Position numbers and translations under genes: made by a program. The notes beneath the pieces were generated by a model, which saw only the letters and a list, made by a program, of their open reading frames with translations, made no database searches and was not told the origin of the DNA. DNA of 64,000 nt. It comes from Alphaproteobacteria bacterium (GTDB lineage Bacteria; Pseudomonadota; Alphaproteobacteria; RF32; CAG-239). The stretch lies in contig SUUY01000001.1 of assembly GCA_015062285.1 (NCBI GenBank), positions 94,622 to 158,621 of the forward strand, given 5' to 3'. Every line of letters begins with the position of its first letter. Within the stretch, counting starts at the first letter, position 1. Of this stretch, positions 47,725 through 51,231 are shown one piece after another.

Positions 47725-48870
47725 ATGGTTGATGACGATAATAATTTAAAGCTTAAAAATATAAGATCAAGAATTGAAAGCTATTATTCTGAGCAAAGCC
47801 ATGCTGCGGATGACGATGTAGATGTTTTGTGGAGTGCTGTTTCATTATTTGGTGATGGAAATGCAAATTTAAGCAATTTTTCCAATGGGGTGGACTTTGC
47901 AGGAAAAAATTTAGAGAACGGAAAATTTGCTAATGAAAATTTACAAAATGCATTGTTTACGGTTGCTAATTTGACAAGAGTTGATTTTTCAGGTGCCAAT
48001 TTAAGTGGTGTTAATTTTTCAGGAGCCAATCTGACTGAAGCAAATCTTTCCGGAGCTGATTTAACCGGAGCCGTGTTATCCGGGGCTGTACTTAAAGGGG
48101 CTAATTTTACCGGTGCAAAGTTAAATGGCGTAAAATTACAAGAAGCAGATTTGGAAAATGCAATTTTATTGGATATAGAAATTGACCAGCTGGGGATAGA
48201 GGAGCTGCAGGAATTAATAGAATATTTGGCAAAATACTATCCTCATAAGTTGAACTTAACTAAAATGAATCTGACTTTGCTTAATTTGCAAAAGATAGAT
48301 TTGAAGAATGTAAATCTTAAGGGAGTTGATTTCACAGGTTGTGACTTTACCGGTGTTAATATTATGGAGCTTGACTTGAGCGAGTGTATTATATCTCCGG
48401 AACAAATTGCACAAGCTTTGGGAAGAGTTCCAGGAAAAGAAGAGTTAGCAAGAATTTTGGCACCAAAGAAAAAGAAGCAAGATTCATTTAAGGGGATAGA
48501 TACAACATCTTTATTCTTAGGAGACGGCAAGGAATTTGGTGTGCTTGACTTTACAAATGATAAAGGTGTTAGTGTAGAAACGTTGCTGAAAATCGGAAAA
48601 AAAGTATTCAGGCATGGGGCTAAAAAACCTGATGTGAAAGATGAAGAGGTTTTAAGTAATATTAAGTCAGAGCAAGAAATTGAAGCAAAAAATCACAATA
48701 GTGAATTACGTAAAACAATAGAAGATCGAAAAAGAAAAGAGCTGGAAAGCAGGGCGGCTAAGAAAAAAGAATTTATGCAAGAGGTTTTAAAAGAAAATCA
48801 AACCAATGAAACGCCAAAACGCAAAGAATTTAAGGAACAGTTTGTAAATAGAGGACGTGACAGCCGGTAG
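47725..48870 (+). CDS. pentapeptide-repeat protein with Lys/Glu-rich C-terminal tail
   Basis: Two blocks of A(D/N)LxG pentapeptides: ANLTRVDFSGANLSGVNFSGANLTEANLSGADLTGAVLSGAVLKGANFTGAKLNGVKLQEADLENA and NLQKIDLKNVNLKGVDFTGCDFTGVNI. Confidence 0.8.
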   Translation: MVDDDNNLKLKNIRSRIESYYSEQSHAADDDVDVLWSAVSLFGDGNANLSNFSNGVDFAGKNLENGKFANENLQNALFTVANLTRVDFSGANLSGVNFSGANLTEANLSGADLTGAVLSGAVLKGANFTGAKLNGVKLQEADLENAILLDIEIDQLGIEELQELIEYLAKYYPHKLNLTKMNLTLLNLQKIDLKNVNLKGVDFTGCDFTGVNIMELDLSECIISPEQIAQALGRVPGKEELARILAPKKKKQDSFKGIDTTSLFLGDGKEFGVLDFTNDKGVSVETLLKIGKKVFRHGAKKPDVKDEEVLSNIKSEQEIEAKNHNSELRKTIEDRKRKELESRAAKKKEFMQEVLKENQTNETPKRKEFKEQFVNRGRDSR

Positions 48871-48873
48871 CTT

Positions 48874-51231
48874 ATGGTAGCAAGTCGTAATATTGAAGAA
48901 GAGAAAAGCACGATAAAACCATTACTTATATTTGGAATGGCGTTGTGTTTTGCGTTGTTGTGCTTTTTTATTCTTTCTGTTGCTTCTTTAGCTTTTGTTC
49001 ATTTTTTTGTTTGCGGAGCAACCGGGTCTAATTGTTGTGTTTTTGAGCATAATGAAATATCCGATAGTGGTTTTATTTATTCTTTTTTTCAAGCATATGA
49101 AAATTGGTTTTTAGTTTTTAAACAAAGTTTTATTGATGGTAAATTTAATTTGTTTTTGATGTTGCCTATTTTAGTGCAAATATTTTCTTTGTTGTTATTG
49201 GGTTTTTTGCTGTTTAAGAGTTCTTATTCTTTTAGTCTATGGTTTGTATTGCGCAATCATTTTGCAGATATACAAGATGTCGAAAAAATGGGGCTTAAAG
49301 GTGGCAAAATAATGGCTCTGGGGCGTTTGGGTGGAAATTTACTCGGTATAAGCCGAGCAGCTTCAGTTCTTTGCGTGGGAGAGACAGGTTGCGGAAAAAC
49401 ATCGACATTGGCTGTTCCTTCAATTTTGCGCTCGGATAATGTAAGTGTGATTGCCATTGATAATACAGGTACGTTATCGAGACATACCAGCGGATATCGC
49501 TCAAAAGTAAGTGATGTATTTTATTTTAATTGGGATGTTTCTGACAATAAAGATAAAGGAATTGTTTATCCGAGGTGGAATCCTTTGGCTGAGGATAATA
49601 TTCCAACTAATGCTGATGATAAAATAGAATATTTGCACTTTTTGTCTACATATTTAGTTTCTGATGAAAAAGGTGATGCTACGGATAATTATTGGCAGTG
49701 GTTGTCGTCAGGAACATTACTGTCATTGATTTATTTTTTAATGATTAAATGCAAACAAGCAATGGCAAATGATTATTTTTTAGGAAAGATTGTTGAGGGC
49801 ATCAGATTAACTAATGATGATAAAGATATTTTGATGAGCTATTATGCTTTGATGCCTGAAGATTACTCTAAAAAAGGATTGGAAATAATACAAAAAGAAA
49901 ATGTTTCCCTAGGTGATTATATGCCGATCGGAAGCTGGGAAGGCGTGCCAATTTCGTGGCAAGGTCATGATTTGTGCTTTGGAATGGTGGCTGATTGGCT
50001 TTTGCAAAATTATCTCTCTAATAAAGATGGAAATAGTAGTGGAGATTGGAGGCAATGGTTGGAATCACTGCTTTTGGAAGCAGAGATTTTTAATTATGGC
50101 GGAGTTGCCATAAATGGGATTAAACAATTTTTGTATTTATCAAAACTTCAAAGACAATTGGTTTTTGCGCAAATACTTAAGCCTTTAAGAGTTTTTTTAA
50201 ATCAAAATGTGCGTGAGAAAACAAGCGGCAACGATTTTAAAATGTCTGACTGGGCAGGGCAATACGATGAGAATGCCAAAAAAGGAAAGCCGATAACAAT
50301 ATATGCCGCAGCTAATACAAAGACAACAAAATTTATCAACAGATTATTTGTTGATGTTTTATTGAATTATGGTGTATTGAAGCCTAATAATAGAAACAAA
50401 ATTCCTGTTTTGGTAGTGTTAGATGATGTCGGACAAATGCTAAAAGTGAGAAATTTGGCAGAAAGTGTGGCAAAGGGGCCGATGTTTGATATTTCATTTT
50501 TACTATTGTGTAATAGTTTGAACAATTTGGAAAACACTTATGGAAAAGAGGTGTTAGAGAATATTGTTGCAAATACAAGTTATAAAATTGTAATGGCTGA
50601 CACTAATGCAAAAATGAGCAAGCAACTTAATAAACTGGCGTTGTTTGCAACAAAATCTGTACAGATTCCTTTAGGCGGAACAAAACTATTTAAGATGAAA
50701 AAGCATTTTGCCGACGCAAACTATTATCATTATTGGGCAACTAAACTAAAGGTGAAAAAGAATTTGCAAGTAGAGACCAGAGGATATCAATTGCTTTTGG
50801 CTGAAGGATATTATCATCTTCCGATTTTGACCAAAAATATGACCTTTATGAAAGATAATGAGTTTAAGGAAAAAGCCGTTTTACCGGTAAATTACTTTTT
50901 GGATTCTAAAATAGTAGCTCTTCGTGATGTGCAAGATTTTATTGTTCCGAATGTTGATGATGTATTGCGTGATGCTGATTTGGGATTTGATGATGAAGTT
51001 GAGTTGGGACAATATATGGAGGTTGTCTATAATGATGTGCGAAATCAAATGCCGGAAGATCCGAAGATGTCTTCGGTTATGATTGATGATATTTCAACAA
51101 AATGGAAAAAAAGAGAAATATACGGAGGGGCAGATATAGAAAAAAAATCGGAAAATTGGTGGCTGAATGAAACATCATTTGAGCAAAAAAATGAAAAAAA
51201 ACAAATAAACCCGTTTATTGCAAAAAAATAG
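48874..51231 (+). CDS. VirD4/TraG-family type IV secretion coupling protein (T4CP) homolog, divergent, N-terminal TM domain
   Basis: ~4 N-terminal TM helices; GLKGGKIMALGRLGGNLLG then Walker A CVGETGCGKTSTLAVPSIL...VIAIDNTG (VirD4 ViPnLL block), RWNPL motif, Walker B IPVLVVLDDVGQ, degenerate QSxxQL..YG block FLLLCNSLNNLENTYG and ANTSYKIVMAD. Confidence 0.7.
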   Translation: MVASRNIEEEKSTIKPLLIFGMALCFALLCFFILSVASLAFVHFFVCGATGSNCCVFEHNEISDSGFIYSFFQAYENWFLVFKQSFIDGKFNLFLMLPILVQIFSLLLLGFLLFKSSYSFSLWFVLRNHFADIQDVEKMGLKGGKIMALGRLGGNLLGISRAASVLCVGETGCGKTSTLAVPSILRSDNVSVIAIDNTGTLSRHTSGYRSKVSDVFYFNWDVSDNKDKGIVYPRWNPLAEDNIPTNADDKIEYLHFLSTYLVSDEKGDATDNYWQWLSSGTLLSLIYFLMIKCKQAMANDYFLGKIVEGIRLTNDDKDILMSYYALMPEDYSKKGLEIIQKENVSLGDYMPIGSWEGVPISWQGHDLCFGMVADWLLQNYLSNKDGNSSGDWRQWLESLLLEAEIFNYGGVAINGIKQFLYLSKLQRQLVFAQILKPLRVFLNQNVREKTSGNDFKMSDWAGQYDENAKKGKPITIYAAANTKTTKFINRLFVDVLLNYGVLKPNNRNKIPVLVVLDDVGQMLKVRNLAESVAKGPMFDISFLLLCNSLNNLENTYGKEVLENIVANTSYKIVMADTNAKMSKQLNKLALFATKSVQIPLGGTKLFKMKKHFADANYYHYWATKLKVKKNLQVETRGYQLLLAEGYYHLPILTKNMTFMKDNEFKEKAVLPVNYFLDSKIVALRDVQDFIVPNVDDVLRDADLGFDDEVELGQYMEVVYNDVRNQMPEDPKMSSVMIDDISTKWKKREIYGGADIEKKSENWWLNETSFEQKNEKKQINPFIAKK

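Follow-up and report, generated by a model that had tools for sequence, protein, structure and literature searches.

A VirD4-like ATPase and a pentapeptide-repeat protein form a conserved chromosomal gene pair in gut Alphaproteobacteria, with no type IV secretion genes found within 10 kb

Type IV coupling proteins (T4CPs), which are DNA-dependent and DNA-stimulated ATPases, are to our knowledge understood in one role only, that of receptors for the substrates of conjugation and type IV secretion machines. TrwB of plasmid R388 (1e9r/1gki) has an NTPase fold that is hexameric, anchored in the membrane and equipped with an all-alpha domain, and it works on the plasmid with a relaxosome and a VirB-like channel. 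Cagbeta of Helicobacter pylori (8dol), encoded inside the cag type IV secretion system (T4SS) island, is a VirD4 homologue under a small dedicated partner, CagZ, whose gene is adjacent to that of Cagbeta, and in the Legionella DotL complex (DotL-DotM-DotN-IcmSW-LvgA, 6sz9), which is part of Dot/Icm, a type IVB secretion system, a C-terminal extension of DotL recruits adaptors. The functions of pentapeptide-repeat proteins (PRPs), on the other side, are mostly unknown; those of the MfpA/Qnr type mimic B-DNA. Here we analyzed a 64,000-nucleotide (nt) stretch of the genome of a gut alphaproteobacterium (contig SUUY01000001.1; the whole stretch is called the window below), in which a gene for a 785-residue VirD4-family, T4CP-like membrane NTPase (48874..51231, + strand) directly follows a gene for a 381-residue PRP (47725..48870, +; PF00805). 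We show that the two genes form a conserved module in uncultured gut and rumen Alphaproteobacteria (the gut clade) and in more distant relatives, and we weigh what such a motor might do away from a secretion channel.

At the junction of the two genes (TAG-CTT-ATG, 48868..48876, +) the sequence reads ...CGG TAG CTT ATG..., and the VirD4-like gene therefore starts 3 nt past the PRP stop. The original prediction, made from the sequence alone, had given these coordinates and this spacing, with a SPOR lipoprotein gene and rarA as flanks and an intact reading frame between them, and all of this holds: the VirD4-like reading frame is uninterrupted over 785 residues. Against Pfam, its product matched T4SS-DNA_transf (PF02534; 80.3 bits, cutoff 20.1, E 1.8e-22), TrwB_AAD_bind (PF10412; 41.4 bits, cutoff 20.5, E 1.1e-10) and TraG-D_C (PF12696; 31.4 bits, cutoff 22, E 2e-7) and had no FtsK match, while the PRP matched PF00805 (113.2 bits, cutoff 20.2, E 3.6e-33) and PF13599 (75.9 bits, cutoff 38); the matches of both proteins are far above chance. 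Curated NCBIfam T4CP models, a set that also included TraD (TIGR02759), matched the VirD4-like protein too, yet all of them below cutoff: the best score, for CD1115 (NF045973), was 78 bits against a cutoff of 250, and the VirD4 (NF010472/NF010424) and TraG (NF010450/NF010453/TIGR02767) models gave 28.8 against 728 bits and 40.7 against 674 bits. Since these scores lie so far under the cutoffs, the protein is a very divergent member of the T4CP homology family.

Sequence searches of the PDB, with the profile of 68 family members as well as with the single sequence, found no T4CP, and the profile returned nothing at E<=0.01; it was fold comparison alone that matched T4CP structures there. In an AlphaFold2 model built on the 68-sequence family alignment (mean pLDDT 82.5), there are two long helices at the N-terminus and a P-loop alpha/beta core into which an all-alpha domain is inserted, while the C-terminal tail is poorly ordered. 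A Foldseek comparison with the PDB ranked Cagbeta, in complex with its regulator CagZ, first (E 1.3e-13; 13% identity), and next TrwB (E 3.4e-8; TM-score 0.6-0.69 on the target), to which the protein has no sequence-level match, and DotL (E 1.9e-6). HerA-type ATPases were weaker matches (TM 0.25-0.31) and FtsK was not in the top 50. By profile and by fold, the VirD4-like protein is a T4CP homologue and not an FtsK or HerA protein; Pfam, NCBIfam and Foldseek, with Cagbeta, TrwB and DotL on top, agree in this with the original prediction.

The T4CP architecture and the motifs that the prediction had quoted are all present in the translation. An N-terminal membrane domain (48907..49227, +), delimited by hydropathy and model helices, comprises TM1 (residues 12-51) and TM2 (89-118) by hydropathy and, between them, a periplasmic loop with an amphipathic helix (~52-88), and the corresponding helices of the model span residues 14-47, 67-88 and 93-115. 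The Walker A motif GETGCGKT (residues 169-176; 49378..49401, +) lies within the block CVGETGCGKTSTLAVPSIL; G169, G174 and K175 are invariant in 68/68 family members, position 176 is T or S, and the translation also holds the motifs VIAIDNTG and RWNPL. The model and the TrwB_AAD_bind match place the all-alpha domain that is inserted in the NTPase fold (residues ~241-460; 49594..50253, +), and two invariant blocks specific to the family, ANDYFL and PIGSWxGxPxxWxG, lie within it. Walker B, VLVVLDD (residues 512-518; 50407..50427, +), ends in D-D and not D-E, so that the catalytic Glu of the hhhhDE consensus is not present; within the gut clade 65 of the 68 sequences have D-D, the rest have E-D or D-N, and D-E occurs in 0/68. 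The Q motif SFLLLCNSLNNLENTYGK (residues 541-558; 50494..50547, +), which the prediction had quoted as CNSLNNLENTYG, is degenerate as well: its Gln positions are N/D and variable, with N or D at the first of them throughout the gut clade, whereas Y556 is invariant and G/S557 is kept. Relatives outside the gut clade have a DE or DD Walker B and retain Q[DS]xxQ[IVL]...YG, and the gut clade is the derived group, with a DD Walker B and a lost Q motif. In the acidic tail, a C-terminal motif (D/E)WW(L/M)xExxF-x9-10-NPF (residues 761-781; 51154..51216, +), of which W762, W763, F769, N779, P780 and F781 are invariant in 68/68, is common to the gut clade and the protein of a distant locus (L090; 46% identity over 48 residues). 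Altogether 46 columns are invariant across the 68 sequences, Walker A and the C-terminal motif among them. The NTPase core is basic, and the all-alpha domain and the C-terminal tail have net charges of -9 each.

We next determined how widely the gene is conserved. The NCBI entry identical to the VirD4-like protein is a hypothetical protein from an uncultured Alphaproteobacteria metagenome-assembled genome. A word-indexed search gave 96 full-length homologues with 31-57% identity, nearly all of 760-800 residues, and its only further match was a canonical VirD4 at E 8.8e-4. In a scan of one genome per species the gene was present in at least 111 GTDB species genomes, and all 111 are uncultured gut or rumen Alphaproteobacteria, for example CAG:495, Candidatus Scatocola and 'Azospirillum sp. 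UMGS63'. Homologous loci, each taken with 10 kb on either side and labelled by L-numbers, kept the gene order hsp33(-), recX, truA(-), gfo(-), lipoprotein, PRP, VirD4-like, rarA ... rluC, asmA, atp12; rarA was directly downstream of the VirD4-like gene in 85/89 loci, and the VirD4-like reading frame was intact, at about 740-840 residues, in essentially all loci that were not cut by a contig end. The VirD4-like protein and the lipoprotein are the fastest-evolving of the neighbourhood, with mean corrected distances of 1.18 each, compared to 0.94 for AsmA, 0.64 for the PRP and 0.14 for RarA. The VirD4-like gene is a core, vertically inherited, syntenic chromosomal gene of the gut clade. Insertions of 1-3 kb were seen in loci L070, L072, L081 and L043-L045, either between the PRP and ATPase genes (L081, 2.5 kb) or between the ATPase gene and rarA.

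The PRP gene stood directly upstream of the VirD4-like gene in 88 of the 89 gut-clade loci, and in the lone exception the contig ends 120 nt before the VirD4-like gene. Between the stop codon of the PRP gene and the first ATG of the ATPase gene lay at most 26 nt, or the genes overlapped, in 77/86 loci with both genes on the same strand (median 5 nt). Synteny extends over the entire region in the gut clade, which makes adjacency by itself weak evidence there. However, the pair also stays together where its surroundings change: in L049 recX is followed directly by the PRP gene, and lipoprotein, gfo and truA are absent, and in L042 the upstream region is unrelated. Furthermore, a profile search of 1.84 billion representatives returned 170 at E <= 1e-30, so that the family reaches far outside the gut clade. 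Among such distant relatives the pair was found in an order ...M50-HlyD, PRP, T4CP, mipZ(-) with a gap of 22 nt (L090), in an order obg(-), rsfS(-), PRP, T4CP, rpmF, plsX with a gap of 5 nt (L092), and in an order FTHFS(-), PRP, T4CP, glgP(-) with a 1-nt overlap (L176); among metagenome loci of the L092 type with enough upstream sequence, the PRP was present in 16/16. Its occurrence in three other housekeeping neighbourhoods of distant relatives therefore makes the pair a real two-gene module. The pairing described in the original prediction is thereby borne out and is co-conserved in relatives: the PRP and VirD4-like genes are a conserved, tightly spaced module in at least four housekeeping neighbourhoods and more than 100 species. 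At 9797-16460 of locus L080, in one genome, there is either a real inversion of the T4CP-rarA segment relative to the PRP and lipoprotein genes, with its breakpoint between the PRP and ATPase genes, or a misassembly. Defence genes were seen near some distant family members, HamA (Hachiman) at 18597-19565 of L109 and Cas9/Cas1 at 1-2444 of L176; they are probably unrelated to the module.

The PRP itself differs from the DNA-mimicking pentapeptide-repeat proteins MfpA, Qnr and AlbG. It has an acidic N-terminus, a first beta-helix block (residues 55-150), a helical insert (151-178) with the conserved consensus EIDxLGIEELQxLIEYLAKYYPHKLNL, a second block (179-236) and a basic C-terminal half (237-381) that contains APKKKK and a terminal RGRD(S)R as well as a small conserved domain and a charged helix; the net charge is -16 for residues 1-236 and +8 for residues 237-381. 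These share with it a right-handed pentapeptide beta-helix and an acidic surface, but Qnr and MfpA are single beta-helices of ~200 residues; the window PRP has roughly double the length, the helical insert divides its beta-helix, and its 145-residue basic C-terminal half has no counterpart in the DNA mimics. The NCBIfam models for Qnr (49.1 bits, cutoff 240) and MfpA (48.3 bits, cutoff 360) were both missed; models for effectors of the PipB/PipB2/SopA type also matched, all below cutoff, and the pentapeptide repeats of DotG/IcmE match the PRP at the level of the repeats only. A profile of the gut-clade PRPs aligned to the L090 PRP over the helical insert, the second repeat block and the region that follows (E 5e-15; aligned insert segments LIEYLAKYYPHKLNL and LIEFLLKHHPELVNL), and the PRPs of the two groups are thus orthologous beyond their repeats. 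The C-terminal ends read ...RGRDSR in the window, ...KVSRGR in L090 and ...NFKKRA in L092. The tail had been described as eukaryote-like, a description that finds no support: it is a conserved basic or charged helical region of the bacterial orthologues, with no eukaryote-like mark.

The gene upstream of the pair (45901..47655, +; 584 residues as the longest reading frame) encodes a lipoprotein whose conserved start is Met6 at 45916, giving 579 residues with an invariant lipobox Cys at residue 26. Its C-terminus (47434-47652, +; residues ~512-584) is, by model fold and orthologues, a SPOR domain: PF05036 scored 17.6 bits on the window protein, below the cutoff of 21, but is carried by several orthologues, and in the model residues 512-576 adopt the beta-alpha-beta-beta-alpha-beta SPOR fold, with a Foldseek match to the SPOR domain of RlpA (TM 0.68). 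The SPOR part of the original prediction therefore stood, and what it had missed was the remainder of the protein, a helical body (residues ~55-466) of a divergent TolC/NodT-type outer-membrane factor (OMF), a homologue that travels with the pair in two lineages. The window lipoprotein had no direct match to Pfam OEP (PF02321). With hhalign, however, the profile of its family aligned to an OEP+SPOR protein, the product of the first gene of the L090 cluster, over 560 columns (probability 99.9, E 1.2e-33); that protein is a genuine Pfam OEP member (88 bits, cutoff 22) with a C-terminal match to the SPOR end of FtsN from Caulobacter. On this profile alignment we regard the lipoprotein as a divergent homologue of TolC/NodT outer-membrane factors. 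It differs from these in its added C-terminal SPOR domain and in having neither a direct OEP match nor a pump or adaptor at the locus. Whereas an OMF barrel is formed from two beta-hairpins per protomer, the model contained one short, low-confidence hairpin (residues ~286-300), and the first beta-hairpin region of the gut-clade OMF is ~30 residues shorter than in the L090 orthologue.

In L090 the order is gfo(-), OMF-SPOR, RND_mfp, HlyD-like, M50-HlyD, PRP, T4CP, with the genes from OMF-SPOR to T4CP on one strand, downstream of a divergent gfo as in the gut clade. The RND_mfp adaptor scored 117 bits (cutoff 94.9), and the M50 protein, of 715 residues, is a daptide-HExxH-like metalloprotease fused to a HlyD-like region. 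This cluster (2307-8882 of L090) has no ABC, RND or MFS pump, and the sole NTPase of the operon is the VirD4-like protein. Homologues of the L090 adaptor and M50 proteins were sought in the window and the gut-clade loci and none was found; neither an ABC, RND or MFS pump nor an adaptor gene was present at the gut-clade locus. The trio of OMF-SPOR, PRP and ATPase is thus common to two lineages, the gut clade and L090, and two others have the pair with no adjacent OMF.

We also asked from where such a gene could have come. Among the ~50 larger reading frames of the window screened against Pfam, none belonged to a T4SS channel, relaxase, integrase or pilus family, as the prediction of a locally orphan gene had it, and neither VirB4, VirB6, VirB8-11, Trb or Dot proteins nor a relaxase was found up to 10 kb away at those loci that have precomputed Pfam lists, which cover five lineages; the orphan status extends over ±10 kb in ~180 loci. 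The closest T4SS-embedded relatives are VirD4 proteins encoded right after virB11 in virB8-virB9-virB10-virB11 clusters, one on a 4.2-Mb chromosome (GCA_018332375.1) and others on the megaplasmids p1 of Sphingosinicella sp. BN140058 (WP_165356653.1) and pMVF16-3 of Microvirga sp. VF16 (23% identity). VirD4 of these clusters scored 292 bits to the family profile, with 23% identity over ~69%, and shares with the window protein two TM helices, the P-loop NTPase, the inserted all-alpha domain and the TraG-D_C region. The cluster virD4 genes stand next to virB11 as part of a channel operon; the window gene is preceded instead by a PRP gene, among housekeeping genes, and its product has a DD Walker B, no Q motif and the WW...NPF C-terminal peptide. 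A search of 72,556 plasmids gave only 20 weak matches to the family. The ten relatives sampled from the profile search, together with the L090 and L092 proteins, were all below the NCBIfam T4CP cutoffs.

The explanation that we favor, tentatively and short of an even chance, is that a VirD4 coupling ATPase of alphaproteobacterial virB8-9-10-11-D4 clusters became detached from its channel and was fixed in the core genome with a dedicated PRP partner. The VirD4-like protein would be a membrane-anchored hexamer. Because Walker A is invariant, nucleotide binding is probably retained, and the chemistry of hydrolysis is probably altered in view of the DD Walker B and the missing sensor Gln. The PRP, presumed cytoplasmic, would dock on the cytoplasmic face of the ATPase, and the charges would be complementary, the acidic beta-helix and basic tail of the PRP facing the basic core and acidic domains of the ATPase. 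By analogy with CagZ for Cagbeta, or IcmSW/LvgA for DotL, the PRP could be a built-in regulator or adaptor; it may also take the place that DNA or the relaxosome has for conjugative T4CPs, possibly by DNA mimicry, a step suggested by the B-DNA mimicry of MfpA/Qnr-type PRPs and by the DNA-stimulated ATPase activity of T4CPs. These parallels extend to the C-terminal element that the window protein, like DotL, carries, in its case a conserved peptide motif. They have their limits, as CagZ is a small helical protein and not a pentapeptide beta-helix, and the adaptors of DotL are unrelated to PRPs. The module would work without a VirB channel and, where OMF-SPOR is present, could work with it in an envelope-spanning conduit.

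Several observations weigh against this explanation. The absence of VirB genes covers 10 kb around each locus, and a channel could be encoded elsewhere in the genome; in Rickettsiales, T4SS genes are scattered (rvh). With its DD Walker B the protein might have only slight ATPase activity, or none, and binding between the PRP and the ATPase is proposed from gene linkage only. The inversion of the T4CP-rarA segment in L080 leaves the PRP and T4CP genes on opposite strands, and a sister subgroup (L094-type), abundant in human-gut and rumen metagenomes, has in place of the PRP a different, membrane-anchored upstream partner of 387-420 residues, an uncharacterised protein that combines TM segments at the N-terminus with a Pro-rich linker and an alpha/beta region at the C-terminus and matches no Pfam family. 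Rate covariation (partial Mantel, 51 taxa) was r=0.55 for PRP and T4CP and r=0.65 for lipoprotein and T4CP, not clearly above the control pair asmA-atp12 at r=0.59. The OMF link, finally, involves two lineages only, both of which also share the upstream gfo; L049, L042 and the lineages of L092 and L176 have no OMF neighbour, and since the gut-clade neighbourhood is wholly syntenic, its adjacency there could be inherited gene order. The partner genes of the sister subgroup lie at 8841-10004 of L094 and 8684-9946 of L109, in housekeeping context, and are followed by conserved small reading frames.

Other explanations have to be set beside the detached VirD4 ATPase. The main rival, possible if rather doubtful, is that the protein is a working T4CP for a VirB-type T4SS encoded elsewhere, with the PRP as its adaptor or chaperone, or as an effector with an Arg/Lys-rich C-terminal tail. 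The canonical architecture and the nearest relatives, VirD4 of virB8-11-D4 clusters, fit this, and the conserved basic C-terminal tail of the PRP resembles the substrate signals of the Agrobacterium VirB/D4 system, which are C-terminal and positively charged. Pentapeptide repeats, moreover, occur in secreted effectors, including those whose PipB/PipB2/SopA-type models the PRP matched below cutoff, and T4CPs commonly have adjacent partner proteins (8dol, 6sz9). Yet there is no VirB, Trb or Dot gene within 10 kb at any locus examined, in at least four lineages, the PRP holds the position that virB11 has in the T4SS-embedded relatives, and a core, syntenic gene is not what most T4SSs would provide; that the gut clade has lost both its catalytic Glu and its Q motif, and that all curated VirD4/TraG/TraD cutoffs are missed widely (for example 28.8 against 728 bits), also argues against it. 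An unlikely extension of the idea of an OMF conduit is that the VirD4-derived ATPase is the inner-membrane motor of an export route, so far unrecognised, that runs not through a VirB channel but through the TolC-type factor, which SPOR would anchor to peptidoglycan, with a DNA-mimicking PRP as gate or substrate adaptor. HlyD-type adaptors and the M50-HlyD fusion would join in some lineages, and the logic of type IV secretion would thus be combined with that of type I in a function that is core in several alphaproteobacterial lineages. Quite unlikely, in our judgement, is a DNA translocase of chromosome maintenance that acts with RarA/RecX-type functions or at the septum, with a DNA-mimicking PRP as its off-switch. 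The immediate downstream position of rarA in 85/89 loci, the joint movement of the two genes in the L080 inversion, the nearby recX, the DNA dependence of T4CPs and the DNA mimicry of MfpA/Qnr-type PRPs together with the acidic beta-helix of the window PRP, and the septal targeting suggested by the SPOR domain of the adjacent lipoprotein would all suit such a motor. The rarA linkage is, however, limited to the gut clade, with mipZ, rpmF-plsX and glgP as neighbours in L090, L092 and L176, a complete FtsK is present, and the pair has no co-conserved nuclease, helicase or recombinase.

The remaining alternatives fare worse. That the two proteins have nothing to do with each other in function, and stand together by inherited gene order, would agree with the synteny of the whole 20-kb neighbourhood in the gut clade and with rate covariation not clearly above the controls, but it is very unlikely given that the adjacency recurs in three other, unrelated neighbourhoods of distant relatives and in all L092-type metagenome loci with enough upstream sequence (16/16), persists where the flanks are lost or rearranged (L049, L042), and comes with gaps of mostly 0-26 nt or overlaps. 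We hold it to be just as improbable that the pair is an anti-phage or conflict module of a HerA/FtsK-superfamily ATPase and its partner. A weak PADLOC match to mad8 (2.9e-5) over residues 159-199, HerA-type ATPases of defence systems among the weaker fold matches, and an evolution faster than that of the neighbours (mean distance 1.18, compared to 0.14 for RarA) could be read in its favor; the PADLOC match, however, covers the P-loop only, the gene is core at a fixed locus in every sampled clade genome, unlike patchy defence islands, no nuclease, Sir2, TIR or other effector domain was found, and the T4CP-specific TM and all-alpha domains are retained. On the P-loop-level match and the core, non-patchy distribution we set a defence system aside. 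A decaying remnant of an integrated conjugative element, which the original prediction had allowed for, or a pseudogene is hardly credible. The lack of a relaxase or channel gene nearby and the degenerate motifs (DD Walker B, lost Q motif) might be expected of a remnant, but essentially all of ~90 loci, from at least 111 species, keep an intact reading frame of full length, 46 columns are invariant across 68 sequences, the gene sits at a fixed position among housekeeping genes with no integrases or repeats, and its G+C content is that of its surroundings. Conservation and intactness effectively refute this reading.

The surroundings of the pair in the window are those of an ordinary chromosomal region. 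G+C is ~36% and uniform, most genes are on the + strand and GC skew is positive in nearly all 1-kb bins, so that the window is probably leading strand, well inside one replichore. Housekeeping genes encode FtsK, LeuRS, HtpG, HslUV, MurJ, BipA, L9, L10/L12, RarA (51287..52603, directly downstream of the VirD4-like gene) and RluC, and recX is near the pair. A promoter-like site TTGTCA-17-TATTAT (47663..47691, +), a consensus match only, sits in the 69-nt gap between the lipoprotein and PRP genes, and it is weak because the regional total of such sites is not above shuffle expectation. The complete FtsK (625-2937, +; 4TM, alpha, motor and gamma domains), a canonical protein that the original prediction had overlooked, means that the genome keeps a normal septal DNA translocase beside the VirD4-like protein; replacement of FtsK by the latter is ruled out by it. 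An [FeFe]-hydrogenase maturation GTPase, HydF (5920-7155, +), fits an anaerobic gut lifestyle for the source organism. The window also encodes a YifB/ComM-type Mg-chelatase-like AAA+ protein (37304-38866, +), homologues of which have a role in natural transformation in some bacteria; no competence genes other than this ComM-type gene were seen in the window. A 105-residue reading frame (52596-52913, +) overlaps the end of rarA, has no Pfam match and is detectable in 6/89 related loci, and is either poorly conserved or no gene. Reading frames of 610, 244, 167 and 312 residues, at 31929-33761 (+), 22826-23560 (+) and 60029-61538 (-), had no Pfam family at E <= 1e-5 or 1e-4.

In the literature searched we found no account of a chromosomal module of a VirD4-like protein and a PRP, in line with the original prediction that the module is undescribed, and nothing relevant on RF32/CAG-495 gut Alphaproteobacteria with secretion systems. 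Since T4CPs, PRPs, outer-membrane factors and SPOR domains are already known kinds of protein, what is new is the way they are combined, the place of this combination in the core genome and the derived active site. A descendant of VirD4 that is core in more than 100 species of gut Alphaproteobacteria, which are common though uncultured, with no channel genes within 10 kb, suggests that there is a motor job not described so far. Were a T4SS hidden elsewhere in these genomes after all, the PRP would represent a new class of adaptor or effector, and a widespread gut lineage would have a core T4SS. If, on the other hand, the module is independent of VirB, the motor of T4CPs would be reusable for another task at the envelope or on nucleic acids, and pentapeptide-repeat proteins would gain a defined partner.

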